Both the position numbers and the translations under genes were made by a program. DNA of 63,996 bases, counting the filler, from Asterionella formosa (Eukaryota), in assembly GCA_002256025.1 (NCBI GenBank). It is 18 parts of 18 records of this genome, joined end to end, with 100 filler letters (N's around TTAATTAATTAA, not from the genome) between each part and the next. Parts side by side here need not be neighbours in the genome. Positions count along the whole stretch, not along the records: positions 1 to 20,891 come from NKIB01003202.1; positions 20,992 to 41,876 come from NKIB01003209.1; positions 41,977 to 43,261 come from NKIB01003215.1; positions 43,362 to 44,646 come from NKIB01003216.1; positions 44,747 to 46,031 come from NKIB01003217.1; positions 46,132 to 47,420 come from NKIB01003218.1; 12 more parts are not named here. One strand, given 5' to 3'. Each line of letters starts with the position of its first letter. Position 1 is the first letter of the stretch. Below are positions 1 through 47,199 of this stretch, piece after piece. The notes below the pieces were generated by a model. It was not told the DNA's origin. It saw only the letters and a program-made list of their open reading frames with translations, and ran no database searches.

Positions 1-773
1 TGTAGCTCTGTTGAGGAGAACCTTATTGTTGATAAAGGTGAGCTACAATATTGTGATTATTTGATTGCGATCATGAGTTCATTGTTCTTGGCATTCACGC
101 ATGTACAACTGTACCTTATCTGGTGGCCAACCCGGTATTGTTCGACGCATGAACAACATGTATCAATTTGGTATTGGAATAAGTATGCTGGAACGAAGTC
201 GTACGTGGAACTACCGGTAGATACTGGTAAATATCAAAAATACCGTGAGTTCTTGCTATAAGTAATACTGCAGCTACCGGTACTGGGTATAATGTGAAAG
301 GTTCGGTACCTGGTTCCTGGTACCAGTACTGTACTTCATTTGTTCGCCCTGTTCTATTAAAGCATAATAAAAACCGTCTTTCTACCTGACGCACCTCCGC
401 CAGAGGTTGTTATACCTCGACATACGTCGTCGTACCGGTACCTGTTACCACTTGCCACTGTGTATAGATATGTTCATATCATACCTGTGGCGAAAGTGTA
501 CCTGGTACCTGGTACGAGGTACCAGGTATCAGATCACGGTACGAACCGTAAGGATTCATGTATCGCATCACTGATGGATGTGACACCATTTCTTCACAGA
601 TCCAACCATCAACCGCACATCATCGTCCATCGGATTTTTCGCTTCTTTACAAATCAACGACAGCAAGTGACGATTACATTCTGAATCACATCACACTCGT
701 ACAGTTGGAGTAAGGCAGTTATTAACAGTACAAATTCATTCATTCACTCAATCAAGTTTCTCCTACATTCGCA

Positions 774-2795
774 ATGATGTATTCCATCGTTGGACAACTG
801 CTCCATGCACTTCTCGGTAGCCTCATCGTACTGCAATGCAAATCAACAACCGCCTTCACGTCCTCATCGATTGCCCTTCATATGGTCATGATTCAACCTT
901 CCCACGCCATGAAGTTGCCTACACTCAAGAGTATTGGACGACTTGGTACTGGTAAGGAATTGCACATGAGCACGGCTGCTACGGTTTCGGCTGATGGAGA
1001 AAAGGAGGTCAATGGTTTCTTTGGCAAGGTACGTTGGAAAACAGAAGGCTTTTACCTCGAAAAACGCCATCATCTCACGCTCATCAATTATTGTTGAATC
1101 AAACTCTGCGTCTTCATAATTCATATAAATTGAAGTTCAAAGCTGCGATCCCGCCAGCGCAAGAACGAAAGAAGCTCATTCCACTGGCAATCATGTTCTT
1201 CTGCATTCTCTTCAACTACACAGTGCTAAGGGATACCAAAGATGTGCTGATGGTAACGGCACCAAAGTCAGGGGCTGAGGTGATTCCTTTCATCAAAACT
1301 TATTGTAACCTTCCTTCTGCGATTGGATTCACCGCAATCTATGCTACCTTATGTGACAAACTTGAACAGAAGAATGTATTTTATGCATGCGTCGTGCCCT
1401 TTCTATTGTTCTTTGCATCATTCGCCTTGATAATCTATCCAAATAATGGTGTTCTGCATCCTCATGTGTTTGTTGATTCGCTGCAAGCCTTGCTTCCAGC
1501 GGGATTTGGAGCACCGTTGGCGATTGTGAGAAATTGGTCCTTCGCCGTCTTTTACGTACTGGCGGAAATGTGGGGAAGTGTTGTGACATCCTTGCTGTTT
1601 TGGGGGTTCGCCAATGAAGTTACGACAGTTGACGAAGCGAAAAAATACTGTAAGTCATGTATTCTGGCATTTCAAACTTTGCAACGGAGCACAAGTACCC
1701 CCCCCCCCTGCGTCATCTGTGGTCCCGCTTGCTAACAATAATATATTCCCGTCGTTGTTTCGTAGACCCACTTTTTGGAATGGGTGCAAACGTTGCCTTG
1801 ATCTTTTCGGGTCAATATGTACGCTGGGTCTCGGGCTTACGTGCCAGCTTAGCTCCTGGTGTCGATCCCTGGACAGTCTCGTTGCGCTACCTCATGGGGG
1901 CCGTCGTAGCTTCGGGAGGTGTCTTGATCGCCACGTACGCATGGATGCAAAAGAACGTGGTACCTTACTTGGATTCCACAAAATTAAAGGCAGCAGCCCC
2001 AAAAAAGAAGAAGCCTAAAATGAGTTTGGCTGATTCAGCCAAATTTTTGCTGAAATCGCCTTATATTCGAAATCTGGCCGTCTTGGTTATCGCCTATGGC
2101 ATGTGCATTAATTTGGTCGAAGTGAGTTGGAAAGCCAAGATTAAGGTGGCCTTCCCAAACCCCAACGACTATTCCGCATTCATGGGCAACTTCTCTTCTG
2201 CTATGGGCAGTGTGACATTGCTTATGATGTTGGTGGGCCGGTCGATCTTTCAACGATTTGGGTGGAGATCCGCAGCACTTGTCACCCCTACGGTAAGTTT
2301 ATTTCTTGGTGATATTTTATTGCTGATTCAACAGTTTTTAAATCAATCTCACAACCGTTTGCGCATTAGATGATTGGAGCAACTGGATTAGGATTTTTTG
2401 CCTTAAACATGTTCTCCGGGTCTCTCGGTCCAGTCGCTAAGGTTCTCGGAACCACTCCACTTATGCTTGCCGTCTTGGTAGGAGCCGCACAAAATATTCT
2501 TTCCAAATCATCAAAATATTCTCTTTTTGACCCGTGCAAAGAAATGGCCTATATTCCTTTGGACCAGGAATCCAAAACTAAGGGCAAGGCTGCTATTGAT
2601 GTTGTCTGCAACCCATTGGGGAAGTCAGGCGGAGCAGTCATTCAACAGATTCTGATCTTCGCTGTCGGAAGTTTGGCCGCAGCAACACCGTACCTGGCGG
2701 TCATTTTGAGCGGACTGGTCTTCATGTGGTTTCGGTCGGCAAATTCACTAGCGACGCAATTCGAGGCCGCCATGGAAGGGGACGAATCAAGTTAA
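774..2795 (+). CDS. NTT: Plastid nucleotide transporter (TLC/NTT ATP:ADP antiporter family), 4 exons
   Basis: Exons 774-1028, 1136-1649, 1766-2292, 2370-2795 join in frame across GT-AG introns. NTT motifs FNYTVLRDTKD, LAEMWGSVVTSLLFWGFANE and SKYSLFDPCKEMAYIPLD..K.KGKAAIDV. Signal peptide followed by TAF (diatom bipartite plastid presequence). Confidence 0.95.
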
Positions 2796-3034
2796 TGGAG
2801 TCCAGGAATGCCAGTGTTAACGGGTAAACAGCTTGCCAAAATAATTGCATCATTATAGACTTTGATAAAGTATGTGACGAAAATTCATTTAACAATGACG
2901 AAGATAGTGTTACATTGACGTTCTTCACATATCGTGGTATCCAGTTGCTGATCGAGCGAACGGCCTATTATCACTACAGCATTAACTTGGTAACCCTCTT
3001 GGAATACCACTTGCGGCGTTCACTATCAACACAA

Positions 3035-4216
3035 TCACGTTTTGCTCGATGGTAGAATCTCCAACTTCCCCGACGGCCAACATCCTATAGCTTGCAATGT
3101 TCTATTATTCGAAGTGACATCGATAGGAGTCGCAGGGTAACGATTCAAATCCATCAAGCTCCACTCGTTGGCAATAAGATTTGTGAGAATACCAGGAGCA
3201 TGTCCGCCAAGCCAATGCAGGACATCTTGCAGAGTGTCGTCTCCATCAAACCGCCGTTTGTAAGTCGTGGAATTGGTTATTTTGACTTGAAGCAACGCCC
3301 CGGTGCCAGCTGCTGGTTCCGACGGCAATTGCTGCATGTAATTACTACGTGCTATGGATTCTTCTGTGGAGGAGTTGGACTCTACAATAATGGCTGCGAA
3401 GTCCTTTTCAAATTTCAACATAGCCTTGTTCTCCTTGTATTCACCTTTCAGTTTCACTTGTTCCAGTGCCGATATTCCCAAGTACAGCACCGCACTATCG
3501 ACATGTTCTCGCGGCAACCTTAATACTGCACCTTCATTTTGAAACCCCATTGATTTCAGCAATGCAGTGCTTCCAGGGGCACCAGCAACGCTGCGTTGGT
3601 AACCAGGATTATTCGTGTCGATTCTCCGGTACTTCTCCACGTTGGGATTGGCTTGTATTGTCACAAGTGTCTTATAAAGAGTATCGACCGCCATAGAGTT
3701 TGATTTGAGCCGATCTGCCGAGCGCAAAATTTGCTCTTCCTTGCTTTTGCGGTCGAGCGGGAGTGGGATAGTCACGTTCGGATGATGCGTCGCTAAAGTG
3801 TCAGAGTTGGAATGCTGTGGGAAAGGACCGACCCGTTGCTGCGCGGCGGCCGCGGCTCGCTGAGCCGCTGCAGTGCGAGTGATGCGCTGGACGCCGATCG
3901 CGTGAGCTTCTCGGGGCCTACCAGCTGTTGAATGGTGAAGGCTCAGGTGCTGGGCTTGTTGATAAAGGCGTTGTTCTTCCGACTGAAGAGATTCCACGAG
4001 TGCTGCTTGGAGGGCCTGGTCTGTACTCGCGTTGGCATTCGCTCCAGAAAGCAACAATTCTGTGGCCGCCTCGACATTGTCATTGCATTGAGACAAGGCA
4101 TGTCTAGCGGCATCGGTCGAGAATCCCATTTGCTCCAGTTGCCTGACGTTGTCGTCTCGCCCACTCGCCGAGGAATTCGCAGCCGAAGTCAAGCGGCTTG
4201 TCAGTCTCCGAAACAT
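3035..4216 (-). CDS. UBA-PUB-UBX domain protein (likely p97/CDC48 cofactor)
   Basis: ATG at 4216. UBA-like QLEQMGFSTDAARHALSQCNDNVEAATELLL, PUB-like NPNVEKYRRIDTNN...LLKSMGF, UBX-like KRRFDGDDTLQDVLHWL...TLQAIGCWPSGKL. Intronless. Confidence 0.82.
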   Translation of the reverse strand: MFRRLTSRLTSAANSSASGRDDNVRQLEQMGFSTDAARHALSQCNDNVEAATELLLSGANANASTDQALQAALVESLQSEEQRLYQQAQHLSLHHSTAGRPREAHAIGVQRITRTAAAQRAAAAAQQRVGPFPQHSNSDTLATHHPNVTIPLPLDRKSKEEQILRSADRLKSNSMAVDTLYKTLVTIQANPNVEKYRRIDTNNPGYQRSVAGAPGSTALLKSMGFQNEGAVLRLPREHVDSAVLYLGISALEQVKLKGEYKENKAMLKFEKDFAAIIVESNSSTEESIARSNYMQQLPSEPAAGTGALLQVKITNSTTYKRRFDGDDTLQDVLHWLGGHAPGILTNLIANEWSLMDLNRYPATPIDVTSNNRTLQAIGCWPSGKLEILPSSKT

Positions 4217-5074
4217 GATAGTAGAACCAATGAGACCTTGTAAAGGTTGATTTGTATGGAAGCGATAAGAAAGGCTGAGATGGTGTATAGGTAAGGTGCA
4301 CCGAGCAACCAGTTGCAACACTGCAACAACAAGCCACACCAACGAGAATATTGGACTTATCTCACTAAAATTATGTGCAGATCGATGTACCGGGTATACG
4401 ATGTCGTTTTGTGGCTCCTATATGCCAGGTAATACTGGTACACATGTATAGCGATCATAAACTGTGTCCACCATATTTGGCCTGTACTAGTCTGGTATAC
4501 CTGAATACATGGCGACTGGCTATGTACGGTACCTGGTACCCTGGTAGTTACCACGGGCGATGTAGCTATCGTACGAATTGAAGAGCAAAAACCCTATGTA
4601 TGTAGCCACCACCAAGCGAAAGCAGGAGAACTGTCGGTCGATGCCCGTCGTTGACGAGCGAAAGAAATCACTTGTTCGAAGAGGTTCGTTGAAAAGCTTC
4701 GAAAAGCAACCGCCCGGCAAGGACAGACTGCTTGACTCCAGACACGTACAAATACAAACCACAAGCAGCTGTGCATGAGCGATCACGCTAGTGAGGAATA
4801 TGTGTCAAACTATCCCTATCCCCAAAAATTGAAATGAGTTACGTCAGCTTGTCTGTGTTGAGAACCGCACATATGTACAGGCATCATCGAATGATGATCA
4901 TCGTCAAGCAAGGCTGTGTCAAGGCTGATGCGCCATGTGATCTCGCCCTTGTATTGTAGGATTACGGTTTACGGTACCAGGGGTACCTGGTATTATCCGT
5001 CGACATCATCATCGTCTGGTTTCAATGCCGATGTGTTCATCGCACCAAGGACGAGAATAGTAAGCCTCATAACA

Positions 5075-6334
5075 ATGGCAAAAACTACCGCGATGAGCAA
5101 GTCATCTATCCTCCTGTCTCTCCTCTTCTTGCTCGCAATCAGCGCTGATGCTTTGGTACTGCCAAATCGTGCTGTCGCAAGAGCGTCTTGTGCACCACGA
5201 GGCAAGCCTCGTTTCATGAATGATGCATTGGTGGGGGCTGCTCCCGATGATGTCAAATCGAGCAAGAAAATGCAGCTCGCGTCCCAAATTCGCAAGGAAG
5301 GCGGTTTATTTGCATTTAATACCAAATTCGGAGCCTTGAATCCCTACGCACTGTGGTATGGAGTAACTTCAATAGTTTTGGGCTTGTTTTGGTTCGTCGC
5401 ATTGATAGGGTGCGAGTTGTTGTATAAGGTCACTAATGGCAAAGTGGACAAGTTGAAGCGATTGCCAACGTTTTTTAGTCAAATCTGGGGAGAGACATTG
5501 ATCAAGGTGGCTCGTGTGCAACCGGAAGTGGTGGGAAGGGACGCCCTCAAGACATTTTTCGAAAGGTAGGTGAATGACTGACACATGATTGAATTGCTTT
5601 GCATTTTATTGCATCTGATGGTTCGATGAAATTGTAGCAATCGCGCAGGTATGTTTGTCGCAAATCACAATTCATGGCTGGACATCCCCTTCATTGGACA
5701 CACCATTGGATGGCGGAATTACAAGCTGGTGAGCAAGGCGGAACTGGGCAAGGTGCCTATTCTCGGAAGAGCCATTAAAACGGGGGGACACATTATGGTG
5801 GACCGAACAGATCGACGATCGCAGCTCATGACGTTGAAAAGCGGGATTCAAATGTTGAAGGTACGTCGTGACCTGGGGTTCAATGGAAACGAGGGTTTCA
5901 CGAAGTGACTATTTTACCCTCCAACGCTCACCCGCTTTTTGTGCTCCTTTTAAAAATCAAATGCGGCGAAGGATGGTGTCCACTTGTGCACATTTCCTGA
6001 AGGAACCCGTTCCAAATCCGGCCGTCTTGGGAAGTTTAAGAATGGTGCATTCAAAATGGCTCACAAGGTAGGCGCTCCCGTTGTTCCTATATCCATCGTC
6101 GGAGCCTCCAAAGCGATGCCATATTATTGGATGTTTCCCTTCCGGCCAGCGTCTGGTCTCTGCAAAGTGGTGGTCCATGAACCAATTGAGAGTGTGGATA
6201 AGACGGAAGAAGAGTTGGCCACCGCAGTGCGGGAGGCAATTATTTCGGGATTGCCAGAGGATCAAAAGCCGTTGGACCGTTTGAAGAGTGCAAATGAGAG
6301 CGTTGAGGAGGACAACAACAGTAGCAGCAATTGA
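5075..6334 (+). CDS. 1-acyl-sn-glycerol-3-phosphate acyltransferase (LPAAT/PlsC family), probably plastid-targeted, 3 exons
   Basis: Exons 5075-5565, 5638-5860, 5972-6334 join in frame across GT-AG introns. Acyltransferase motifs ANHNSWLD and FPEGTRS. Hydrophobic signal peptide plus a basic transit-like segment. Start could instead be the ATG at 5093. Confidence 0.92.
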
Positions 6335-6880
6335 AGTACTTTGAGAAGAAGGGTTAATTATTGCTACTCAAAAAATGAAAGTTATTTCTTGAACTAAATG
6401 CTAAATGGAGGCCTTAAATAGAATCATATAAAATACACACTATCAGTCCGAGGTTTGTATAGCATTTGCTCTGATTCTGTGTTACGCTTCTAATCAATAG
6501 CATTTCATTGACTTCGACCTTGTCTTTGATTCCCGTCGTCTTTTTTCGCTTCTGCGAAGTGAACAGTTGTACCGGTAAACTTTAAAACTTGGGATGAGTA
6601 ACGAAAAGCCAGAAGTATCAGCCATTTTGTGAATACAAGCGTGGTTGATCGATGCATAGTCCGACCTCGAGTTTTTAACTACTTGTGACGTATACCGCAC
6701 ATCGTGCTCCAGAGTGCAATGAGCGGCAATTTCAAGCAATATTTTCAATAATAATTCTTTCACGACCGAAATTAGTAATAACAGGAAAAGGATTACACAG
6801 TTATTGGGAACTGCATCAAACCTTACATGGCAGTTTGCATTCAAAGAAATGTAACTTGTGTCTTTCGCCGTGTTTTCGAA

Positions 6881-8002
6881 TCAAAATTCCCCTCGTTTGA
6901 TATGAAAAAGATGATCCCCATTCGAATTCGTGATAAGCTGGCAATGATTGATCCATTCATCTCCTCCTATTTGCGACACTAATTCTGCCTTGGACCAACC
7001 ATCCTTGATAGTAAAGAGATGGCCTAATCGTTCAAGGATCGTCATGTTGGCAACATACATCCACTTATCATTTTGGAGAGAAATGGCAATTCCCTGAAGC
7101 ATGTGTACACCAACCTTGTGGTGGACACCAGGCATATGAAGTTGCCACTCTATCAAGAGGTGGTTTGTGTCCCAAATTCCTTGCTTTCGGAAGACACGAT
7201 GAACCACACATTGAGCCACCTTGGTCACGTCTAATGATATTTTGATATTGGATTGATCGTCGTCCTTTTTCAGCGTGAGGAGAGTGTGTCGAATCACCTC
7301 CGGTAAGTACTCGTATTTTTCTTCTGTTCGGGTCACAGCTTGTCGGACAAAATCTTCTACTTCAATATCCAAAAAATCATGGAACTTCTCCACTTCAGTC
7401 AATGTTGCCACAATGCTAGCTTGAGCTTCCGTCAATCCCTCTTCTGACAACAGCCCATATCGGTTCGTCAAAACGAGAGCATTCAACTGGGCCAACCCAG
7501 CCATCAGTTGTTTCTCGCTTACTTGAAGCGGCAAAGCAAGATCATTAACCGAAAGTCCCTTCCATCTACATATCGGATCAAAAGGATCCAAGACATGCTG
7601 TTTCAACAATGCATGCAAAGCCTCAACATTAAGCGGGTGTTCTTTCAACTCCAAAAAACTAGCACCTGATCCACCTCGTTGTAGAAGTTGGACCTGCTGC
7701 ATGCGCATGGAGTGTTTAACTTTCTTGGTGGGTCGCTCGGCACTAGGCTTGATCATTATGTAGGCGTTGGATGTTTCTACCCTCGAAACGGCATAGCTGA
7801 CCCCCTTCGTTTCATTGATCCAGCATGCTTGTTGTGTGGGAGTGGAAGCGACGAGTCGACTACCTGGTAAATCCATCAAATCAATCTGGTCAGGAAGTTG
7901 AAACAAAACAAGATCGTCATTTTCAGAGGGAACCGCCGTGTCAAGATCCGAACGATAGATGGTAAGTAGAGAATGACATTCGGTGGGAATTACAGTAGAC
8001 AT
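6881..8002 (-). CDS. DCC1: Sister chromatid cohesion protein DCC1 (Ctf18-RFC subunit)
   Basis: 373-aa intronless ORF with DCC1-like LVLFQLP, SYAVSRVETSNAYIM, LQVSEKQLMAGL and C-terminal ERLGHLFTIKDGWSKAEL. Confidence 0.78.
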   Translation of the reverse strand: MSTVIPTECHSLLTIYRSDLDTAVPSENDDLVLFQLPDQIDLMDLPGSRLVASTPTQQACWINETKGVSYAVSRVETSNAYIMIKPSAERPTKKVKHSMRMQQVQLLQRGGSGASFLELKEHPLNVEALHALLKQHVLDPFDPICRWKGLSVNDLALPLQVSEKQLMAGLAQLNALVLTNRYGLLSEEGLTEAQASIVATLTEVEKFHDFLDIEVEDFVRQAVTRTEEKYEYLPEVIRHTLLTLKKDDDQSNIKISLDVTKVAQCVVHRVFRKQGIWDTNHLLIEWQLHMPGVHHKVGVHMLQGIAISLQNDKWMYVANMTILERLGHLFTIKDGWSKAELVSQIGGDEWINHCQLITNSNGDHLFHIKRGEF

Positions 8003-9913
8003 TGGAGAGTGCTTCGGCTTGCTTTAGAGAACGGTTTTGCTGCTTTCTCAATTAAGGCCTTGTCGCGTTGGCCGATGAATAATACCGTTAGCCAGCAGTC
8101 ACCGAGGAGGAGGAGCGCTTTGGTTTTATCTTGTGCAAATTTGCTGTTGTTTCCTCTTACATAGCATCATGTGATCTTGTGTTCATTCGTAACGCAATTT
8201 TTAAAGGCCGTATGGGCTCGTAGTAAATCCGGGGGTTCACCCAGCTAACTAAAAAATTCGACGTCAGTAGAATCACAATTTATCGTTTCTGGACGCCTGC
8301 GCTCGAAATCGTTCAACGAAGATGGTGAAACTTACTTGGCAAAAACAGAAGTGGCTGGGAGAGATGTAAAATACTCACCTGGAGATATTATAGAAGCCAG
8401 CTGTCTAGTTCTTACATCACCATCAGTGACAGGCAAAACTTACCACACATTGGCTCAGAAGGTTGGTCTTCCAAGGCATTTTGACTCTTGTTTTTTTGTA
8501 TTTGTTCTCAGACACTCTTGATTATCGCATACTACTGCATGTAGAGCAAAACAACTATGCTGGCTAACGAAATTCAAGTAAATTCAAAAGCCCTAAACGA
8601 TGCACATGTATCACTATTAGCGTTATACTCACCCAAGTATACTAACCTAACCAATGTACTACTACCCTCCTTAGCCTGCATCGTCTGGCATAGAAAATGT
8701 ATATTGCTTCTACCAAGTGCTTTTTTGAAGGATGTGGATCGAGCCAGGTTAGTCACTGAGCATATTGAAACTAAACTGGAACAGAGGGAGAACTCCATTG
8801 TTGTTGTTACCAACAAGACTGGCAAGTTGCATGTAAGTGCAATAGGAATGGTTTATTGACAATTTTCGAGGAGATATTCAGCCAGTTCATTAATCTCATC
8901 ATGGTCAAGTCGAAGTTGCTGTCTCATCATCCCCCTGCCTACTACAGCAGTACAAAACCAAATGCCGGTGTGCATAACCATATGCCACACCCGCAATGTA
9001 GCTATGTAGGAAATTTACACACTGGTGCTGATACTATCTGGTGGGCATATGTGCAACAAATTAAACCTGGTACTCGTAATAGAAATGCATATACAGGTTG
9101 TCCCAATTGTTCTATGTCTGTATTTGTGTCTATATTTAACTTCAAAGTGACATGCCCAAGATTCAATAGAAACATTATCCACAACAATGAGTATCTACAT
9201 GATAGTCAGTACAAAATTATACATTGAGGTAATTTCTTGTGTTTTGAGATGTTGCGCCCTCTCCGCGATTTCTCTTGGTCAAGTTTCTCATCTAATTGTA
9301 CAGAAGATAGAAATAATTATCTATCAGAAGCTATCAAGCTAGCTAGTGAAATTCCGCAGTGTTGGAGCAAGCTGATCAAGTGGTGGGCATGGTTCTACCA
9401 CCATGTACATGCGTTCACAACTGCAGATACCCCATCTGGGACTTGGCATGTCCACCACCTCGCAAGTTGGCCCTGTCATGCCACCATTTGATTCCGATTG
9501 CTATCTATTGATGATTGACAGTTGTTGCTCCAAGTGGCTGCATGACAAATTGTTGTATGGATTTCGTTGGAGAACCTACCTACTCCCATTCATGCTAAAA
9601 TAAGTGGAGTGGGGGGTCCTATAGCGGTATTGCTGAAAGGGATGGTCATGAGTATAGAGGAAGATTTCGGTCGGACTCACAGTTTTCGTATTCCAGGAAT
9701 ACAGGAAAATGCTACTTTGGTAGAATTTAACCAATAATGTACAGGAAGACTATGATGTGCAGCCAACCATCAGGAACTCCCGACAAAAGATACCTACCGG
9801 TATGAATACGTATTCATTACCGGTACCAGTACTAGGTAGCTGCTCCGAACTGGAATACCGGTACTGGTTCCGGTAGGTGATCTCATCATTACGGTACCAG
9901 GTACCAACCAGGG

Positions 9914-9965
9914 TACCAGCAAGTTGCGGTAATTTTAATCCCAGAATGACCGCAACTTGCAGGTA
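9914..9965. mobile_element. Minimal TA-flanked inverted-repeat element (MITE-like)
   Basis: TA + CCAGCAAGTTGCGGTAATT (9916-9934), a 10-nt spacer, then AATGACCGCAACTTGCAGG (9945-9963) + TA. Arms are 17/19 complementary. Related sequences occur at 19471, 20665, 28474-28585, 46195-46230 and 63072. Confidence 0.6.
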
Positions 9966-10194
9966 CCTGGTACATCTTTTGTGCTCCGAGTAGACCACCA
10001 CCGGGATAGGAATGCTGGTACTGGTACCAGGTACCCGGTACCAGGTACCAGGGTAAACTATTTCATAGACTACTGCCGGTATGGGTAATAATAAACACAT
10101 ACTGGTTTGGCGTACATGTCCAATATTGCAATGATGATGAGGAAATCGAAATATAGATACCGGTACCGTTTATGAATGACAGCTTCCATTGACA

Positions 10195-12132
10195 ATGACG
10201 CTACGAACAACACGAAGCACCGTAACTTCCGGCAAAGCACAACCTTCAAAGCCTAAATTGAAAGCCAAATATTTACTTGGTGGACTGATGTCGATTTTTT
10301 TAATGCTTTTTAGCTTCGTTCAGATCGCGTTTCATAGGCAAGCAAGGAACAGTAGCGGCAAACAACAAGGAGTCCGACACACCAGAGCAGGAGACCATGC
10401 CAATCATGATCCGGCCGTATTGGATAACACCGGGGTTCAGAAAAGCATAAAGACTGGAAAGAAATCGAAGTTGACAGAAGTTGACCAGACCACAAGTCGT
10501 ATTGAAAGACAAATTCAGGAAAGCTTCGGGGCGACCAATGTCAAGGCGTGCAAATCGTTCGAGAGATCAATAGAAATTTTTGATGAAGCCTGTAAGCAAA
10601 CATCCAACTTGGTGGTATATAACCCTATCGCACAAGTACGGTATCTTTGCGGAAAAGAAATACGAACTGAAAAACCCGAGCGTCTTTCCCATCCTTGCAT
10701 GGAAGGCAGTCGAGTTTTTCCAAAAGATCCGCCGTTACACCCAAGCCCTGATTTTGAGCCACGCATGGGAGTGATTGCGGGTATAAAGGAGGGTAACCCA
10801 CAAAAGTTTGACTGCAATATTCCTTGTGACCAATGGGGAAACAATTTAGGAAGCATTTCAATTGATAACTCCAACTGGCGCTTCACCTACTCAATGGAAG
10901 GTTCAGGATATTACCCGGACCTAAGGGTCGACGAGGAGGCTTGGAAGTACAATCAATTTTACGCGACAACCTCTTTCAAGAGTGACGTACCTTTACCGTA
11001 CTTTTCATGGGCTGAATACTCGATTCAGAAGCCTGGAGTCGATTTTAAAAAGGTTATCAAGGGAGCATCGTTCATTGCTCGAAACTGTGGATCCACGAAT
11101 GATCGAGAAACTCTAGTTCGAAATCTCACCCGGATATTTAGGGTTGATTCGCTGTCGTCGTGCCTTCACAATGCTGATCCTCCCAATGGAAGTAGCATGA
11201 GCAATAAGATTGATGTACAAAGAAATTACCTCTTCCATTTGGCTTTTGAGAATACTTGCGAAAACGACTACATCACCGAGAAATTATGGGGAACTTTAGA
11301 AAGTGGTACAGTGCCAGTATACTACGGAGCACCCAACGTTAAAGATCATGCGCCGGAAAACTCGATCATTTCGTGGCATGATTTCAACGACACGATCAAA
11401 CTAGGAGAGTATCTAATTAAGGTGGCAAGCAATCAGCAGCTATACGAGTCATATCATGCTTGGCGATACAAGCCTTTGGCTGACGTTTTTGTTAACAAGT
11501 ACAATTTTACTCATACGCACTCGATTTGCCGCCTTTGTCGTTGGGGCTATGCTCGACGTTACGGATTTGGATGGAATACGACCACTCAGAATGTGCAAGA
11601 TACTCGAATCTCACGGAAAGTGTATACAGATTCTCAGGGATTGTTGATACACCCCATTAATGAGAGATGGATGCAAGGTGGAAACACAATTATGGAGACT
11701 AAGGGCGAAAATGTCGCTTCCGGAAAAATTGAAACTCTTCTTCAGATCGGAAACGGTTCTAGATCACTATGGATCCATGATGGTGTTTTAGACATGATAG
11801 TGGATGAATGGCCTGGAGAGGGTTTTGAGATGGAAGTATGTACCCCGATCAAAACGTATCTCCAAGAGAAGGCGCCAAATCATTTTGTGTTCCAAAACAA
11901 TTACTCTCGGTACACCATCGTGACTCGTCAGACAGTTCCAGCACAATCTGTCAACCCTGGAGTGATTAGCTTCAGTAATTTTCAGGCTGGATTCGCGCTA
12001 CGAGTCATCGTTGAAGACTTGGACACATTTCATCAAGGGGCGACTGAGCAGATTAGTTATTTTGCTGAAAATATGATTTCCGATTTCATGAATCCACTCC
12101 AGTTTTTCCTAGTTTCAGACCCCTCGAAGTGA
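10195..12132 (+). CDS. Alpha-1,3-fucosyltransferase (GT10), type II membrane protein
   Basis: N-terminal TM helix (YLLGGLMSIFLMLFSFVQIAF). GT10 motifs ASFIARNC and YLFHLAFENTCENDYITEKLWGTLESGTVPVYYGAPNV. Intronless. Confidence 0.92.
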   Translation: MTLRTTRSTVTSGKAQPSKPKLKAKYLLGGLMSIFLMLFSFVQIAFHRQARNSSGKQQGVRHTRAGDHANHDPAVLDNTGVQKSIKTGKKSKLTEVDQTTSRIERQIQESFGATNVKACKSFERSIEIFDEACKQTSNLVVYNPIAQVRYLCGKEIRTEKPERLSHPCMEGSRVFPKDPPLHPSPDFEPRMGVIAGIKEGNPQKFDCNIPCDQWGNNLGSISIDNSNWRFTYSMEGSGYYPDLRVDEEAWKYNQFYATTSFKSDVPLPYFSWAEYSIQKPGVDFKKVIKGASFIARNCGSTNDRETLVRNLTRIFRVDSLSSCLHNADPPNGSSMSNKIDVQRNYLFHLAFENTCENDYITEKLWGTLESGTVPVYYGAPNVKDHAPENSIISWHDFNDTIKLGEYLIKVASNQQLYESYHAWRYKPLADVFVNKYNFTHTHSICRLCRWGYARRYGFGWNTTTQNVQDTRISRKVYTDSQGLLIHPINERWMQGGNTIMETKGENVASGKIETLLQIGNGSRSLWIHDGVLDMIVDEWPGEGFEMEVCTPIKTYLQEKAPNHFVFQNNYSRYTIVTRQTVPAQSVNPGVISFSNFQAGFALRVIVEDLDTFHQGATEQISYFAENMISDFMNPLQFFLVSDPSK

Positions 12133-12999
12133 TTGTGCACATATCCCTGAAGACTTTCAGTCTAGTAGAAGGCTCTGTAATAATTTTTGCCATACTTCGC
12201 ACTTTATCTCGTTGCCGCTAGCAAGTGTATGAATTAATGTTCCTGGATTTGAACCCCTAGCTCGAGGTAGGGTTTTGTTTGAATCAGACTTATCAAGCAC
12301 ATAGTTTTCACATTAAAAATAAATGTGTGTAATGCTTCACGGAGCTTTCACCATTAGACGCCCTTTCCATATGCTTCCAAAGGGTCTTCAGACAAAGTAG
12401 GGGTGTACATAGGTCCACTCTATATATTGTCAGGATATAAGATCTGGCAAGAAACTGCAGAAAGGAACTTCTTTTCTTTACTATGCTAAAACGACTAGAA
12501 AATTCGGGGGAGATCTGTTTGTTTGGCATAGTAAAAAACCAAAGTTTCTCTTCTGCAGTTTCTCACTGGAAGGTAAATACTGATGCTATTTGAAGGCTAC
12601 CAATGTATTTAAATCTCCTTCAGAACCAGCCAACATAGAGCTATTGCTGTCCAAAAAATTGACAAAATTGGCCTTTTTACGGTCTCCAAAATCGGAATCA
12701 GAATGACTATGAGCCAAAACATCATAATTGGAATAGTATTCATGTGCCGGAGTTTTTAGTCCTAAAATCTCCTGTCAAGCACATTCATATGTGACTGCTT
12801 CCAGATAATAATATGATTTGTCAACATGAGTTACTTACCTCCATTTGATTTACTTACATCCATTTGATTGGCCTGACCTGCATGGCATTGCAAACCTAAG
12901 CTGGCCACACTTGATGCTGCACATGTATCTTTTTGGGGTGTTTGCCAATACTGTATCCTCTAACATATGAGTACCAGTACTTCTATAATGCAAATTTAC

Positions 13000-31800: not shown

Positions 31801-32624
31801 TTATGGATCCTCCCCCAGTAGCTACGTTGGTTGGAGCCATGGAGTCATTGTATGCGCTTGGTGCCCTTGATGACGAGGGATTGCTGACCAGATTAGGCAG
31901 AAAGATGGCAGAATTTCCGTTGGAGCCTAACTTATCAAAAATGTTAATTCTTTCCGTTGATCTTGGATGCTCAGACGAAATTCTCACTATAACATCAATG
32001 CTCAGTGTTGAAAACCCATTCTACCGTCCCCGCGACAAGCAAGCTCAAGCTGACATGAGGAAAGCAAAGTTTCACCAAGCAGAAGGTGATCACCTAACGC
32101 TACTAACCGTCTACAAAGGTTGGGAAGCTGCCAAATTCTCCAATCCTTGGTGTTTTGAGAACTTTGTACAAGCGCGGAGTATGCGACGAGCCCAAGACGT
32201 GAGGAAGCAATTAGTTACTATCATGGACAGATATAAACTTGACTTGACAAGTGCTGGGAAAAACTACAAGATAATTTGCAAAGCAATTGTTGCTGGTTTC
32301 TTCACCAATGCTGCAAAGAAGGATCCGCAAGAGGGATATCGTACCCTTGTTGATCAAAATCCGGTCTACATTCATCCTTCTTCGGCTGTCTTCAACAAAA
32401 ATCCCGAATTCGTAATCTACCATGAATTGGTTCTCACTTCGAAGGAGTACATGCGAAATATTTTAGTGATTGATGCAAAGTGGTTGATCGAGCTCGCCCC
32501 CGCTTTTTACAAATCTGCCGATCCAAACAAAATTTCCAGGGCTAAGCGCAAAGAGAAAATTGAGCCCCTCTTTGACCGATTCAATCCCAAGGATTCTTGG
32601 CGGCTCTCCAGGCGAAAGGGCTAG
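28851..32624 (+). CDS. PRP22: Pre-mRNA splicing DEAH-box RNA helicase PRP22/DHX8, 3 exons
   Basis: Exons 28851-30563, 30651-30927, 31027-32624. S1 domain, [22 protein letters not shown] formed across intron 2, [13 protein letters not shown]2 region, and the PRP22-type [12 protein letters not shown] motif. Confidence 0.96.
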
Positions 32625-35827: not shown

Positions 35828-36305
35828 GTTCCACAACCTTACCCCGGGTTAACGGGTGTCGAATGATATATCGGTTAATTCTGAGAGGAGAGCAGAAAGA
35901 TCAGATCACTGTTCACAGTACACTCTTGCTTTAATTCTTTATTACCCGTGGTGTCGCATTGAATTTATTCTTTTGTTACATCATTTCTGCAGATTTTAGT
36001 CGATTGGAAGCCAGCATCGTACGTCTGTCCAGCGTCAGCGTTTCGTCCAATGATCGCCTGGGCGGAGCTGGTAAATCGATTCACGAGATTCCAGCTGGAA
36101 TCTTCATATCATGATCATAAAGCGAGTTTGATGCAGACTCACAGCACAGCCATGTTTTTAGTAACCTACTACTACTACCTGGTACCGTGTGTATGAAATA
36201 TGATGTGGAGTACCAGAAAATAGTTGTGTACGTATTTACCGGTATATATCATGTTGAGGATGTTCATATCTCGGAATCTGCTACCGGTAGTTTTCTATTG
36301 ACACC

Positions 36306-37463: not shown

Positions 37464-38846
37464 CTATCGGATGTCGGATCGTCCATTCGTCACGAGTGTG
37501 TGAGCATGGTCCGGGATGATATGATTGGAAAAGTCGTGAAAGCTAGAAGCCTTAATATTTTCCAATATCGAATCTGGATGTGTAATAGCATATCCAGTCA
37601 ATCGAAAGGGCAGGATCCGATGTTCTTCCATTACCCGTTCGAATTCCAGAATTATGGAGCCGGACGGAGGAATCCTTACTATGCGAATCATGTGCACAAT
37701 GTGAATATTGTGTCCATCTAGGGCTTCCACAACAGGATTGATTTCGACCCGTGGGAATTCTGGATGGTCTCGTAAAGTGATTCTTACCTTCTGATAAATT
37801 CCAGGTGGGGGTCCTGTCACCATGTACGCCAAGTGCAGCATTTGCACTTCTTGAAAGGGATTCTTGAATTTGATCCATCCTCGTGGGCTCAACAAATCGA
37901 GTCCATATTTTGGCCCCTCCGGTACGAAATTCTCCATTTTCCATTCGGGTCCATGAGAAATTGATGACTTTCCAGTGGAAAACCAGGATTCGCACGAATC
38001 GTGCTGAGCCCAAGGAATGACAAGATTTTGCCGTTTTAAATTCAGTTCTTTGAAGATGGCTTTGATACCATCTGCCACAACCTGATGACCTGCAGCAGAT
38101 AGATGATGCCAATCCATGGCAAAAAGGTTTTTGACACTTAAAAGCGTTTGAATGGGATCACTATCTCGGGGGAATTCCCACAATATGCCATCGACAATTT
38201 TCACTACCTCATCTTGGATAGTTGTCGCTGTTGCCACAATAGGACGAAATGTCCAATCTGTTTCTGAGTTCGTAGTTCTTATTAGAACTTGAAAATCCTT
38301 GGAGTTCAGATCTTGAGAGACCCCGTTTGATATTACCCAATCTCTCAGACGAAGTTGGCTTGGATTGTGTACGAACATCTCGGGGAACCACAATCTGAGA
38401 AAAATAATGGCGGCATGAGGAAACCGTTGCCTGATCCTACTGGCCAATGTCATCAAGCCTTCCTGGGCCCGAATAAAATATTCTAGAATAATCACATCAT
38501 ACACCGTGTCAATCCCAATCATAGTTTCAGTGCATACAGCAGGGAAATTGGGCCCATTGGCTCGGATTGCCAAGTTTGTCACCTGTGTCGATACGAGATA
38601 CGGGAACGCCTCGGTTAGCCGATCCTTGAGAGTGGCTCCCCACGCAATGCTATCGCCCAAAGTGAGAACTCGAAGTCCTTCCGTCGAATGAGCATCAAAC
38701 TTTCGAATGATGGTTTTCGGATCGACGAGCTTTGTTAATTGTCTGGAGGTTATAGCGTCCTGCTGCAGCGATGACCAATTTAGAACGAGAATGGTACTTG
38801 CCAAAATTAAGGCTACAATTACCAACCAACTCAATTTTCGTTGCAT
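37464..38846 (-). CDS. SGNH/GDSL hydrolase-like type II membrane protein
   Basis: 460-aa intronless ORF. N-terminal TM helix, block I VLTLGDSIAWG, block II NLAIRANG, block V DWHHLSAAGH (DxxH). Confidence 0.75.
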   Translation of the reverse strand: MQRKLSWLVIVALILASTILVLNWSSLQQDAITSRQLTKLVDPKTIIRKFDAHSTEGLRVLTLGDSIAWGATLKDRLTEAFPYLVSTQVTNLAIRANGPNFPAVCTETMIGIDTVYDVIILEYFIRAQEGLMTLASRIRQRFPHAAIIFLRLWFPEMFVHNPSQLRLRDWVISNGVSQDLNSKDFQVLIRTTNSETDWTFRPIVATATTIQDEVVKIVDGILWEFPRDSDPIQTLLSVKNLFAMDWHHLSAAGHQVVADGIKAIFKELNLKRQNLVIPWAQHDSCESWFSTGKSSISHGPEWKMENFVPEGPKYGLDLLSPRGWIKFKNPFQEVQMLHLAYMVTGPPPGIYQKVRITLRDHPEFPRVEINPVVEALDGHNIHIVHMIRIVRIPPSGSIILEFERVMEEHRILPFRLTGYAITHPDSILENIKASSFHDFSNHIIPDHAHTLVTNGRSDIR

Positions 38847-39363
38847 TTTAAAGCATCACTATCCAAGACTCTTCCTCATCTGCTTGTAAGAGGGATATGT
38901 TTGCAGGATGAACAAGTTTTAATGCTTTTATACCGGTAGTCTTTTCGGATCGGTAAATAAGCTCGCATGCGGTGTTTTTGATGCAATGTTTGCAATTCCT
39001 AGCATATTTATTAGCCATACATGGAGTGACTGACAATCGGGCGATGCTCATGTCCGATATGAACTTCCATCAGCAAGGAAATTATCATGTCCGAATTGCG
39101 ATTAGGTATCAGGTACCTGGTACTGTATGCCTGGAGTATCAGCTACCAGTACAAAGTACTTCAAATCAATCCTGCTTGCGCTTACTTATACTACCGGTAC
39201 CAGTACTGAATTTTACGATTTTACGATGATGATTAAATGTTCCACACAACGATGCCATTATGATAGCATGAAATTTTCTGGTACTGGTACCAGGTAAAGG
39301 TAATGGAAGGAATGACTATTAATTTGTTCTTATAACAAACTTTCAGTCAGTTATAGTATTGAA

Positions 39364-39850: not shown

Positions 39851-41479
39851 CTATTTTCGACGAGCATGTTGAATACAAGTATGTAGCAAGGCTGGGTACC
39901 TTCCCACCAAAAGATCTCCAGGTATACTTGAAAGTCCACATGCCAATGCGATTATGGGACTTGCCAGAGACTCCCAAAGGATTGCCATGAAGGAAATAGG
40001 AACTCTCTGTAGTCTTGTCACAATGACACCATCAAATTGCTCCTTGTTTGGAGGCAGAACTAGAACATCCTCCAAGTAAACAGATTGAGTGAACCATTCT
40101 GGACTCTTCATTCGAAGGATCCATTTGCCAGTTGGAACATATGTTATCCCAACATATACGATCCACATTGCAGCAGACAGCAATTGTACCAAAAGGTGAA
40201 GAATAGCAAAAAACACATAATATACCAACACTGTAGTAACCAAAAATAAAACACTGGAAAATACCAGTATTCCAAACAGCAATTGCATATAATCATATTC
40301 CATTGTATCTGTGCGTTGACGTAACGTATTGTATTTTTTGCCACAAAAGAGTCTCCAGGATGCTGCCAAGAGGTACCATTGTGCATTGTGCACTTGACGA
40401 AAACATGTTGCCATAATTGTCACATGCCATGTTACAACAGTGATGAGGTCAATACTCATGGCTATCAAGGTAGTAAGGCCCATGATAACTGACACAAACC
40501 CTAGTGCCATCAGCAATATCTCCATGGCAGTATTGGTCCAAACAATTTCAGATATTGAATCATAGATCGTCATGAGCGTAGTTATTTCTCGTCCCATATT
40601 ATAGGTGAGCGGGACATTTAGTTTAAATCCCACTGGAAATGTTTCTAACCATCGAATATTGTCTCTTAGTAGCCGATCATGACCCAAGGACCAAACAAAG
40701 CGTAACAGTGGAAGTATCATGTTGTTTGGACTTTGTAACATGAGTATTCCCACAATACCACCAAGTATTACATCAAGTGCTGCCTGCATCCATGCATTGA
40801 AGGAACTAATAAAATAGGAACCATCAGGATCTTCAATTTTACTCCTCGTGGATATAGTTATCAATCTCCACAGAGCCGATTTTTTCAGAACCGACTTGAC
40901 AGAGCATTGTTTGGACTGTGTATCGTATGCATGTGCTATCATCATGGAGTTTCGTGCAATTGCATAAATCATTTTGTTGTTGTCGGTTTCAGGGATTTCA
41001 TTCTTGGGATCATTTTTGCTATTCGTATTACTGGGTTGAATGTGCCATTTTGGTACAATAATTTCGACATTGGTCAACATGCCCTGTATCCAATAGTTTG
41101 CATAATTTAACCGCTTCATCAACCTGCTGAAGTACGTAGGTTCATCATCGACATTCTGATAAGAATGAGAATAGGTATCGAATCTTTGGCAAGGCTTGTA
41201 AAGTATCACTTGTCCAGCGATTTTTTCAATACTAAAGAGTTGTAATTGACAAATGTCACAAGAATTTTCCTGACAATTGCTTCCATGTCGAGTCACGAAA
41301 TTCTTGATTTTTTCTTCTTGTTCGTGATTTACAATTTGGATACAGACGGTGTAATCTTTATCTTTCCAACCCACAACACGTTGCTGCCCATCATCCGTAA
41401 CTATTCTTGGACAACACTGATTGTTCCAGGATTTGGTATCTACTGATGGCCAGAGCAGAACTGTTGAAGGAACAATCAT
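39851..41479 (-). CDS. PIGQ: GPI-GlcNAc transferase subunit PIG-Q/GPI1
   Basis: 542-aa intronless ORF with Gpi1 motifs WLETFPVGFKLNVPL and WRLFCGKKYNTLRQRTDTMEYDYMQLLFGILVF, and several TM helices. Confidence 0.9.
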   Translation of the reverse strand: MIVPSTVLLWPSVDTKSWNNQCCPRIVTDDGQQRVVGWKDKDYTVCIQIVNHEQEEKIKNFVTRHGSNCQENSCDICQLQLFSIEKIAGQVILYKPCQRFDTYSHSYQNVDDEPTYFSRLMKRLNYANYWIQGMLTNVEIIVPKWHIQPSNTNSKNDPKNEIPETDNNKMIYAIARNSMMIAHAYDTQSKQCSVKSVLKKSALWRLITISTRSKIEDPDGSYFISSFNAWMQAALDVILGGIVGILMLQSPNNMILPLLRFVWSLGHDRLLRDNIRWLETFPVGFKLNVPLTYNMGREITTLMTIYDSISEIVWTNTAMEILLMALGFVSVIMGLTTLIAMSIDLITVVTWHVTIMATCFRQVHNAQWYLLAASWRLFCGKKYNTLRQRTDTMEYDYMQLLFGILVFSSVLFLVTTVLVYYVFFAILHLLVQLLSAAMWIVYVGITYVPTGKWILRMKSPEWFTQSVYLEDVLVLPPNKEQFDGVIVTRLQRVPISFMAILWESLASPIIALACGLSSIPGDLLVGRYPALLHTCIQHARRK

Positions 41480-42394
41480 GATGGACTAAGATTGGTTGTA
41501 CGGAATCCTGTAGTTACTCTATCAAGTCTGCTTTGATTGTGCTCAAATAATTGGTTCGATCATGCAACCGCAGGATCCATGATCGAATGATGAAGTGCAA
41601 TAGTAAATGTAGTATCGATACAATGATTGAATCTACATGCGTTCCTTGTTATCATCCAACCGCATTCCATCAGAGGATCCAACGACGGCACAACCATTCC
41701 TTACCATTGGTCTTCGCTCAGTGAAATGGTTGGATGCCGTAAACGGGAATATATGATGGGTATTACACAGACATGCACACAAGTAGTTTGGCGCGCCAAA
41801 TGATGGTACTGGAACACACCGGTAGCTGGTACCACCACCCACGACCAGCTATTAATTAAGTAATTTAGCCATAATANNNNNNNNNNNNNNNNNNNNNNNN
41901 NNNNNNNNNNNNNNNNNNNNTTAATTAATTAANNNNNNNNNNNNNNNNNNNNNNNNNNNNNNNNNNNNNNNNNNNNGACAAAGGTGAGCCGTGGCAAACT
42001 GTAGACCGACCATATGGTTTCGCAATATTTAATGACAAGGACAAAGAAAAGTTCATGCCGACAAGATTCTACAACACACCGGTACTTACTGACATGTATG
42101 TATCCGCATCCATCAGGTACCAGGTACCTGGTACCTCGTACCGGTTTTAGTACATACTCCATAATATCATAGTAAGTCATAACTACCGTCCAGTATAATT
42201 CTCTATTTATCTACCGGTGTACATCAATGCTCTATGTCAGGTGCGTATCAGGTACCAGGTACCTGGTACCAGGGGACCAGGTACCGGTACATCCAATGCA
42301 TCACGTACCGACCTCAAGCTAAGTACGGTATGAACCATCAGAATCCGTCATCCGTTTTACACTGTAAAAAAGTATTGAATGCAGGGAGTCATTA

Positions 42395-44250: not shown

Positions 44251-47199
44251 CGAGTCGATTAGGATGAAGAAGAATTAGACGCTTCTTTCGATGCTGTCTG
44301 GGTGCTTCTCTATTCTCCATTTCAACTGTTTGGGTGCAGAGCTGTGTTGTTGCTTCGAGTGTCTTCTTGGTTACAGTTTCAGTTGAATTTGCAAGACATT
44401 TCTCCCATAGAGTTGGCTCCTCTTCAACAATGCTTCCGCGTCCCCTCCTAGATGACTGCTGAAGGCAATACACGCCCGAGGTGGTCTCTTGCCTGCGAGT
44501 ATACATGTGTTCGAGGCTGGGTGGCGCGAGTAGGTTGACCGTACGAGTGGCGCCCCCGGCGCTGCGAGAAAGTCACCCTACGAGTGCCATCCCAGTCGAG
44601 TACACATGTATACGAGAAGGCAAGTAGCCGCCGAGAAGGGTATTGTNNNNNNNNNNNNNNNNNNNNNNNNNNNNNNNNNNNNNNNNNNNNTTAATTAATT
44701 AANNNNNNNNNNNNNNNNNNNNNNNNNNNNNNNNNNNNNNNNNNNNTGTACTTGCTGGTGTCATGATAGACAATGATGAGGGAAGTAAAAAAAGTTGAGT
44801 TGCCATCCCAAAAACCGCTTTGTTGTATTTGACTATGGCATCTTTGTTGTTCAACTTGCAAATCAGATAGTAAACTTTCTCATTGCTTTGTCAAAGGTAG
44901 AATAACCTTTCTTTTTTCGATGATTTCCTTGACATTCCATTTGAGACTCCAACAATACACCTCCAAATGTCCAATCTCTATATCAAGTTGAACGCTGTTT
45001 CCATATGTTTATGGGGAGAACAGTCTCCCCAAAAGCCGTTTCTGATGGGGCCACCGCAGAAAAAATACATGCTAAAAGGCTAGGGAGGAAGAAATCATCC
45101 TATGATGGTACAAAATTGAATGCTGTTTATACATGTTTATGGGAAAAAATAAACTCTAGCCAAAAAGCCGTTTCTGACAGGGCTGCTGAAAATATATGTG
45201 TAAAAGCTAGAGGGGAATAAACCTTGTCATGGAAAAAAGGGGAGAATTTCTCCTCACAAATGTTGGAGAATTTTTTTCTCCTACATTCTCCCCATTTTTC
45301 CACCTTCTTGTTCAGCTACTATTATGCATGGACATTTCAGATTTGTGAAAAATTAGAAATTTGTTGCAAAACGTCGTGTTATTTTACATATGGAGGTTTC
45401 AATGTGGTAAAATAATTTCGATGGGTTCAAAGCAGTTTTTAACTGTTTCACCAGGTGCTTTGCTTCGACTTGATGTGTACATGTCGTACATACGGACATG
45501 TCCGATTATGTACACGTAAGCTTCGTATCCGACCTCCACTTGGCAATAATAGTTAATCAAGACTGCCTTTTGCTGTACCTTCAAACAACCCGGAAACTCA
45601 CGTTTTTGGAGTACCAGCACCTCTTATTACCCGGTACCTGGAAACGGGTACCCCCTGGTATACCTGTTGCTGTTGTCATTCACAACGTTATGCATAAAAG
45701 CTATTAATTAATACAACAATTCTTTCAAATATCATATGGGATTGCTTGCCTTAAAAAAATGTTCTTATGAAATAATATAAAATACACATAAATTATAAAG
45801 CCTACCAGTGTAATTCATGCCACGATATAAATAATCATATCCAGCTACTGTGTGTCATTCACTTCCGTTCTCAAAAGTCTCGCTGCCTTGGATTGAGCAG
45901 TGTTTCAATTATGAGACGAGCTACCACCATGAGAGTCTCTACTGTCACCAGCTTAAGCATTATATTGCGATTGGCAGCAGCTATATCGTCATTACCGTCC
46001 GTCGCTGATGCCTCGTGTTGGCATTCATGGGNNNNNNNNNNNNNNNNNNNNNNNNNNNNNNNNNNNNNNNNNNNNTTAATTAATTAANNNNNNNNNNNNN
46101 NNNNNNNNNNNNNNNNNNNNNNNNNNNNNNNTACTGGTTGGTAATCTGCTGAGAGAATAGGAGCTACCAGTACCTGGTACCGGTAACTCTTGGGTTCAGC
46201 AAAATTACAGCAACGCACTTGCAAGCGGTATATACTGGTACTGGTACTGGTACTGGTATTGGTACCAGTACCAGTACCGGTAGACTACCAGAACCAGAAC
46301 CACAACCTGGTACAAGTTTTTACGTGGGTGTATATTGATTTTCTTATCCAATCATTCTATATAGTTTAATACCACGTACGCACGCACACACTGAACTGAA
46401 CCTCCACCTACTGGTAGACAACAAACCAGTAAGTAATCACCAGCCAAGGAGATCATGGTGAAGAGAAACTTTGCGACCTCTAGGTACCAGGTACCAGGTA
46501 CCGCCCGGAATCTTAAACTACCGGTACCTGGTACCGGAATACCGGATGCGTAGGTAAAACCGTCCTTCCCCAGTCAGCCAACCCAGCAGCAGCAGCAGCA
46601 GCAGCAGCAGACAATGATGTACCTACTCGGAGTAAGTTGTTGGTCGTCAAGGGACGAATTCCCCTGAATTCGCTCTTACGCACCTCTTTTTTGCACAACA
46701 TTCGCACTTGAAATTGCGCATAAAATCCACAGGGCGCTTTTCATGGCGGCGGGGTGTGACAAATTGAACCAGCAAAAGATGCTCGATGCTCGATGCACGA
46801 TGCACGATACAAGGACAAGTCTGAATTTCTCGTTTGAATCCTTCCATGAATGCAAATTCTTCCATTCACTCAAATTGCTGCGCTAACTCCTCCTCCTCCT
46901 CCTTGTCCTGTCGCCTTGACAGAGGCTGCTCTATTGCTACCGGTATTATAGTCGAATACGCGAGCGTGCGGTCACATCAGCTCCGCAGCTTCCATGGGAG
47001 TTCTCGATATTATGTGTGTTGTGTCCATCCACTGTCCACTGTCCATTGTATGTATCAAAATGGTTCCATTCTATTACCATCACCCGGTAGCGAAGTGTCC
47101 AAGGCCTCCTATCAACAACTGTTCAACAAATATGTAATTCAAGTTGGAACATGGGAACACGAGAAGAGCATGGTGTGGTACGAGATGATTATTTCGTGA

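Follow-up and report, generated by a model that had tools for sequence, protein, structure and literature searches.

TA-bounded palindromes upstream of Asterionella formosa genes as probable excision footprints of TA-inserting transposons

Palindrome tracts of the window

The window, a stretch of 63,996 nucleotides of joined contigs from the diatom Asterionella formosa, carries in its intergenic DNA clusters of two short palindromes, TACCWGGTA (W being A or T) and TACCGGTA. Both are probably the accumulated excision footprints of at least two TA-inserting sources of the IS630-Tc1-mariner (ITm) type, one of which, a CCA-ended family termed D, would act as a ratchet by restoring its own target with each scar. 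Considered one by one, a footprint origin is very probable for TACCGGTA and quite probable for TACCWGGTA. Genome-wide counts were made on the species' own assembly (G000, 68.4 Mb, 15,436 contigs); of the window, positions 1-20891 alone lie on its contig C3202. The ten palindrome clusters listed in a sequence-only reading of this DNA all lie where it had placed them. [quoted passage not shown]

275-545: footprint tracts upstream of the plus-strand ATP/ADP transporter (TLC) gene; TACCGGTA at 275 and 433, TACCWGGTA at 499, 506 and 520.
4526-4992: two TACCWGGTA tracts (4530 and 4984) between the divergent ORFs 3035-4417 (minus) and 4898-5569 (plus).
9795-10165: dense tract upstream of ORF 10180-12132 (plus); TACCGGTA at 9795, 9818, 9856 and 10158, TACCWGGTA at 9895, 9964, 10025 and 10039.
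9920-9959: CAAGTTGC MITE of 40 bp, internally deleted, with a direct CAG duplication (9917-9919 and 9960-9962); predicted empty site TACCAGGTA.
19477-19500, plus strand: unpaired end of a longer CAAGTTGC-type element, flanked by TACCTG.
19808-20551: non-autonomous pogo-like element, kin to the CCG-ended family C, with TA on both sides and a 10-N gap inside; its right end is CCG and its left end CCA, probably through CpG decay.
20670-20700, plus strand: degenerate end of another CAAGTTGC-type element, flanked by CACCAG and reaching the contig end.
28301-28607: tract upstream of the DEAH-helicase gene (ORFs 28782-30602 and 31026-32624, plus).
28480-28577: CAAGTTGC MITE of 98 bp, left flank CAG, right flank CA-CAG (2-nt junction duplication).
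36176-36290: tract upstream of ORF 33266-35848 (minus), missing from the earlier cluster list.
38931-39297: tract upstream of ORF 37464-38855 (minus).
42115-42290: two arrays of 2 stacked CCWGG units (GGTACCAGGTACCTGGTACC) on the 5' side of ORF 39851-41485 (minus).
46165-46545: mixed tracts with CCWGG arrays, TACCGGTA and a (TACTGG)n run.

In the window GGTACC occurs 63 times, TACCWGGTA 28 times and TACCGGTA 30 times, about 5, 50 and 51 times the order-2 Markov expectation. G000 contains 26,886 TACCWGGTA and 28,528 TACCGGTA, to be compared with 902 and 1,718 copies of the reversed words used as controls (30-fold and 17-fold), an excess over background that agrees with the sequence-only reading. 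The rarity inside coding sequence noticed there holds as well: the 19 hand-picked long ORFs of the window, which cover 35% of its non-N bases, include 1 of 58 TACC(W)GGTA and 5 of 63 GGTACC. Around 66 long ORFs, counting non-ORF DNA up to 500 nt away, TACCWGGTA is found 73 times upstream and never downstream (27 of 54 ORFs have one upstream, 0 of 41 downstream, with a similar TA density on both sides), and TACCGGTA 42 times upstream and 10 times downstream; since the loci had been selected close to MITEs, the upstream share is inflated. Such an extreme 5' bias would mean either that family D is steered to promoters or that the tracts are retained there by function.

The commonest single change of TACCGGTA by far is C4>T (274 versus 40 in the control), and TACCAGTA/TACTGGTA therefore read as its CpG-decayed forms. 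This decay points to CG methylation, and could favour an origin of the motif by methylation- or repair-driven substitution at methylated sites, as has been proposed for cyanobacterial HIP1. HIP1 is a short palindrome that occurs far above chance genome-wide, coding DNA included, and has a link to methyltransferases. The analogy, already drawn in the sequence-only reading, is loose: the palindrome excess is shared, but the diatom motif is excluded from ORFs, is gained by insertion of 6-7 nt at TA rather than by substitution, and appears to be eroded by methylation. An origin of this kind is almost certainly wrong. Besides these words, TACTCSGAGTA is also in excess (464 versus 86) and fits the tips of a CTCC-ended MITE family, termed E. 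In a 929-kb sample, selected around repeats and hence non-random, TACCAGGGTA/TACCCTGGTA are enriched too (66 versus 0), an excess that a simple overhang rule does not account for.

Transposon families with matching ends

The PF03184 (DDE_1) profile yields 93 matches in G000, of which the top 30 were read, and further end types may exist beyond these. Family A, about 2.46 kb long, has TA flanks and 21-22 bp terminal inverted repeats (TIRs), its ends reading TA followed by CCGTAAAACC, and most of its copies are 99.2-100% identical over ~1,955 nt. Its transposase possesses a DDE_1 domain (PF03184, E 1e-21) with DD35D spacing, which places it in the pogo superfamily. Passer, a pogo-superfamily DD35D element, has been reported in stramenopiles (PMC7386202) and leaves 0-4 bp footprints (PMC9976928); the part of PMC7325037 considered holds no diatom entry. 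Family A resembles Passer in its DDE_1 domain, TA duplication, short TIRs, ~400-aa ORF and DD35D spacing (PMC7386202, PMC9976928), the last also shared by Fot-like elements, and is at most a candidate member of that family. An apparent second, Cys/His-containing frame lies in family A on the strand opposite to the transposase (L194:1340-1740, minus).

After the TA, the ends of family C read CCGTATACTTC and those of the CAG-ended family B CAGTGAAACC, while the Stowaway-like family E, uncovered by a relaxed search of the 929 kb, has ends reading CTCCCTCTG. CCG ends have probably decayed to CCA at window position 19808 and at L213. A search of G000 with PF13358 (DDE_3) gave no match.

The same relaxed search uncovered family D, whose ends read TA followed by CCACCTAAAAACTGAGAGTC and number 147 in G000, with none in the control. 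GG precedes 101 of the 147 (69%), as compared to 8% of all TA in the sample. Between D ends, the metagenome contigs L247 and L243 contain an open frame of 939 amino acids (L247:181-2997, minus), and copies 88-100% identical to it adjoin D ends on contigs C14527, C14529, C11192 and C12738; the clade comprises 132 matches in G000, with many related subfamilies. The protein exhibits DD37D spacing and has no Pfam match, by which, together with its length, it departs from Passer. Its 390 homologues at E<=1e-5 include hypothetical proteins of Fragilaria crotonensis; a Pfam label is carried by 0 of the 120 listed (P0219-P0338), and DDE_1 is matched by 1 of 80. All nine matches of the predicted fold (pLDDT 91.6) at E<=0.001 are Mos1 or Metnase, with low TM-scores (0.24-0.36). 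Judged by this predicted RNase H-like DDD fold, together with the TIRs and the TA duplication, the family D protein is an ITm-type transposase. BLASTP between the family A and D transposases returned nothing significant.

Paralogous repeat copies reveal the states that footprints should leave. When 190 sequences were aligned all against all, 213 distinct indels with lengths of 3-16 nt emerged, some events being counted in two registers. GGTA or TACC is touched by 34 of them, 17 of these being among the 33 indels of six nt; tandem copies account for just 4 of the 34. Site by site, over 801 kb, a plain-TA paralog faces 13 of 352 TACCGGTA sites (one with CA) and 13 of 3,532 other TA-N4-TA sites; the figures are 8 of 464 for TACCWGGTA and 4 of 3,020 for the others. 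Non-tandem inserts turning TA into TACCWGGTA are found in contexts without GG (L186/L177, L189/L183), and one site exists in three states, as TA (L061), as TACCGGTA (L224) and as TACCAGTA (L183, L189). Opposite family D ends, paralogs show either an array (L240/L219, L245/L159) or a plain TA (L136 versus three paralogs); across the paralogs examined, no single site is seen empty, occupied and excised. The inserts thus lie between two copies of TA where a paralog has a plain TA, and the inserted bases are the tips of resident TA-flanked families: A and C (CCG), D (CCA) and E (CTCC). With its TA-bounded inserts of 6-7 nt and its CC..GG-ended, TA-flanked families with transposases, the genome sustains the excision idea of the sequence-only reading, which had named the wrong element as the source.

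The two palindromes differ in their surroundings. TACCWGGTA (n=516) is preceded by GG in 60% and followed by CC in 65% of cases; for TACCGGTA (n=406) the values are 14% and 12%, with 8% for any TA. Of 24 CCG-family ends counted, 0 are preceded by GG. Runs of at least two units are made by CCWGG in 87 of 405 cases and by CCGG in 4 of 405. In 44 of 116 pairs of neighbouring array units the two W are not the same, an outcome beyond the reach of exact duplication. Transposon elements are located in the TA of existing tracts, in agreement with the re-insertion that the sequence-only reading had imagined.

Two other origins have to be weighed at this point. According to the first, TACCWGGTA and GGTACC tracts would be a host promoter element, factor-binding or nucleosome-positioning, grown by slippage and selected, which family D and the MITE target, TACCGGTA alone being a footprint. 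The 5' placement, expected of cis-regulatory DNA, speaks for it (73 upstream versus 0 downstream, in 27 of 54 ORFs near MITEs), as do the exact TACCWGGTA copies, which far exceed single-base variants, the same-W neighbours, in excess, and 5 of the 8 TACCWGGTA paralog matches, which are array slippage or self-matches. Against it stand the identity of the unit with TA plus both tips of family D, the non-tandem inserts at TA without GG context, the neighbours of unlike W and the 5' bias that the clearer footprint, TACCGGTA, also has. This origin is unlikely. According to the second, all motifs would be ITm footprints of mixed origin, left by any CC-ended element as CC+GG, sometimes with an untemplated A, or arising by decay of TACCSGGTA, and the arrays would mark open-chromatin hot spots with slippage, with no ratchet. 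TACCSGGTA is indeed enriched (40 versus 4), CCG ends probably do decay to CCA, and family D has many related subfamilies. However, decay of TACCSGGTA predicts as many copies of the partner product TACTGGGTA, which number 12 versus 516, and this derivation of TACCWGGTA was rejected; flanks and array formation set the two footprints clearly apart, and GG is far commoner before D ends than before TA at large. A mixed origin without ratchet is accordingly given little weight.

The CWG-duplicating MITE and other repeats

The inverted-repeat family that the sequence-only reading had seen inside two clusters is present there, as the CAAGTTGC MITEs at 9920-9959 and 28480-28577; the CC(A/T)G that had been taken for its ends is a direct repeat outside the element. 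The end pattern TACCWGCAAGTTGC has 857 matches in G000 and 0 in the control. From loci L001-L150 and the window, 73 complete copies (85-99 bp) were gathered, the first ~50 loci being picked by a TACCWG flank at one end and the remainder by a flank-free pattern. Of the 60 whose ends are intact, 34 are flanked by a direct 3-nt repeat (20 CTG, 13 CAG, 1 GAG) and 26 by no repeat of either kind, and inverted flanks are absent. The two sides carry the same W in 49 of the 50 copies that could be read, 23 being unreadable and junction duplications of 1-2 nt being allowed; both W states are found at one orientation of the element, with no phylogenetic signal or link to internal sequence (p=0.57). TA stands on both sides in 17 of the 37 direct-CWG copies and is missing on one or both sides in 20, and at L012 two MITEs abut across a single CWG with no TA. 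Since the flanks are direct, the W matched and the TA often missing, and given the L012 abutment, the MITE is best described, from its sequence, as CAAG..CTTG with a direct CWG duplication, or as GCAAG..CTTGC with a 1-bp (W) duplication, rather than as a Tc1/mariner-type element duplicating TA.

These observations bear directly on the sequence-only version, in which a CCWG-CAAGTTGC family, written CCWGCAAGTTGC, duplicates TA and makes the palindromes by excision. The numerous ends reading TACCWGCAAGTTGC would suit it, and 16 of the 37 direct-CWG copies would yield TACCWGGTA if one CWG left with the element. It is contradicted by the direct flanks and the absence of inverted ones, by a W that follows no phylogeny, by the frequent lack of TA and by elements abutting across one CWG. 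The transposase that this reading expected between such repeats was not found among the 50 PF13359 loci inspected, of 150 scored matches, nor among the 30 PF03184 loci. Very little credence can be given to this source. TACCWGGTA is the favourite target of the MITE (16 of 37 inferred empty sites), which suggests that the element merely lands in the palindromes.

Several known elements are similar in part. NuwaI, of the PHIS superfamily, duplicates CWG, has TIRs usually starting with GGG and is reported from animals alone (PMC4482050), and the target of Harbinger3_DR is AAACACCWGGTCTTT (PMC3016246). The MITE shares with both the direct CWG repeat in a palindromic ACCWGGT core (PMC4482050, PMC3016246), hence a CWG target duplication as in NuwaI, or the alternative 1-bp W duplication with a G/C-ended element. 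Its TIR starts with CAAG (GCAAG with the 1-bp duplication) instead of GGG, and the PHIS transposase with its Myb/SANT ORF does not lie within these TIRs among the PF13359 loci inspected (50 of 150).

Besides the short copies, L061, L062, L066, L067, L071 and L074 are longer, non-coding elements (0.8-3.2 kb) with CAAGTTGC ends and several sub-terminal types; most have direct CWG flanks, and no recognisable transposase was found inside them. L224, considered as the autonomous partner, was rejected as a separate nested element. At 23 junctions in the 73 MITE copies, 1-2 nt of the local target repeat are duplicated, as C-WG-WG or C-W-W-G on the left and CW-CW-G on the right (for example window 28578-28582, L121, L128 and L149). 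These extra bases follow the local W, which suggests staggered cutting with in-place rejoining, or gap-fill slippage. At L041-L060 and L220-L239, at least four PIF/Harbinger-like (PF13359) families have distinct TIRs; one has dozens of almost identical copies cut off by contig ends, a sign that it may have been active recently.

Other repeats are present in the same DNA. A family flanked by TTAA, with CCC/GG-type ends (L079, L104, L179, L187; window ~12230-12270), is presumably piggyBac-like, judging by its flanks; the word CCTCGAGCTAGGGG, tried as a TA-CCT end, was rejected as internal to a TTAA-flanked repeat. Copies of a Gypsy-like retrotransposon segment stop at the same CACCTGGTAC position (L151-L153, L129, L229, L232) and past it give way to unrelated DNA, in many cases a tract or the end of a DNA transposon; this is a possible breakage or insertion hot spot. 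In the window, 47171-47394 and 49180-50290 hold a 5/10-nt ATTTC/ATCTG tandem repeat and a diverged array of ~190-nt repeats. Its contigs are joined by linkers of the form N44-TTAATTAATTAA-N44, at 20892-20991, 41877-41976 and then every ~1.4 kb after 43262, which account for both the surplus of TTAATTAA and the long inverted repeats. Almost all named homologues of one window gene come from diatoms, and the public runs that match the window best are mostly freshwater metagenomes. When window 1-20000 was compared with contigs of four public runs, repeat paralogs dominated and tract alleles were unresolved among the rows listed.

A proposed ratchet: scars that would regenerate their target

The reading in which the palindromes are footprints of two sources can be set out as a mechanism. 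CCG-ended DD35D pogo elements (A and C) would insert at ordinary TA and leave TA-CCGG-TA, mostly as single scars, many of which CpG decay would turn into TACCAGTA/TACTGGTA. The CCA-ended family D would leave TA-CC(A/T)GG-TA and prefer a TA preceded by GG, that is GG-TA-CC. If excision exposes 3-nt 3' overhangs, a CCG/CCG pair could anneal through 2-bp CG to give TA-CCGG-TA, while CCA/CCA overhangs, unable to pair, would be joined over a 1-nt A:A mismatch to give TA-CC(A/T)GG-TA. Because family D prefers GG-TA-CC, its scar would double the target: one cycle of insertion and excision would convert GGTACC to GGTACC-W-GGTACC, two preferred targets instead of one, and a cycle at other TA sites would produce two half-targets. 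Repeated visits would stack units into arrays, to which slippage would add some. The CAAGTTGC MITE would be a third party, inserting at the CWG centre with direct duplication.

Several points weigh against this mechanism. Excision, the cut positions, the joining of overhangs and the reason why family D lands upstream of genes are all inferred. Clean TA-versus-TACCWGGTA pairs number just 3, the other 5 matches being the slippage or self-matches already mentioned. Neighbouring units share W in 72 of 116 pairs (p=0.012), and slippage or biased repair therefore contributes. The absence of TACCWGGTA downstream of 41 ORFs is a 5' bias that footprints alone leave unexplained. Canonical 3-nt footprints show no enrichment over reversed controls (TACCGTA 155 versus 193, TACCATA 113 versus 149, TACAGTA 191 versus 219), though a CAG-ended family B exists; repair here would therefore have to depart from the Sleeping Beauty rule. 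The 5-nt insert is larger than the 0-4 bp reported for Passer (PMC9976928). The word TACTCSGAGTA was noticed before it was tested, and its test was hence non-blind. Finally, the sequence link of family D to pogo is weak: hhalign against family A gives a probability of 0.7% (E 0.084), with the three Asp motifs in register.

The ingredients of the mechanism have precedents. In Tc1/mariner transposition the non-transferred strand is cut by the transposase some bases in from the element's end, and repair of the overhangs by non-homologous end joining leaves footprints (PMC8151067). As in the CAG footprint of Sleeping Beauty, the TA duplication is kept here with terminal bases of the element between the TAs; unlike it, the inserts are of 4 and 5 nt with bases from both ends, and ~55,000 exact copies reside in one 68-Mb assembly (PMC8151067). 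In Triticeae, the footprints of Stowaway elements keep, just within each TA, 1-4 bp of the TIR, and the TA of an excised element was found to hold another, new one (PMC1925063); that case is one locus, while here the pattern spans the genome and is linked to a preference for GG-TA-CC that the scar would restore. Empty Emigrant sites retain TIR bases (PMC1636448). Footprints, stramenopile pogo DD35D elements (PMC7386202) and CWG-targeting elements are thus already known; in the literature searched, with partial coverage and supplements excluded, there was no report of genome-wide footprint build-up in a diatom or of a target-regenerating scar.

Footprints are usually regarded as rare and invisible, yet the exact copies in this genome would record past jumps family by family, and from such a record the history of excision could be measured directly. 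When a scar restores its own target, the result is a simple positive feedback, which could build promoter-side repeats, provide safe landing sites for other elements and seed regulatory motifs. The analysis also flags a large, unannotated transposase family. More tentatively, an undescribed diatom clade of large DD37D ITm transposases may target GG-TA-CC upstream of genes and double that target with its scar, leaving in a large share of promoters arrays that serve as landing sites for an unrelated CWG MITE and that may now be a functional promoter signal. If this is true, the outcome would be a promoter grammar made of transposon scars, not of transposon bodies.

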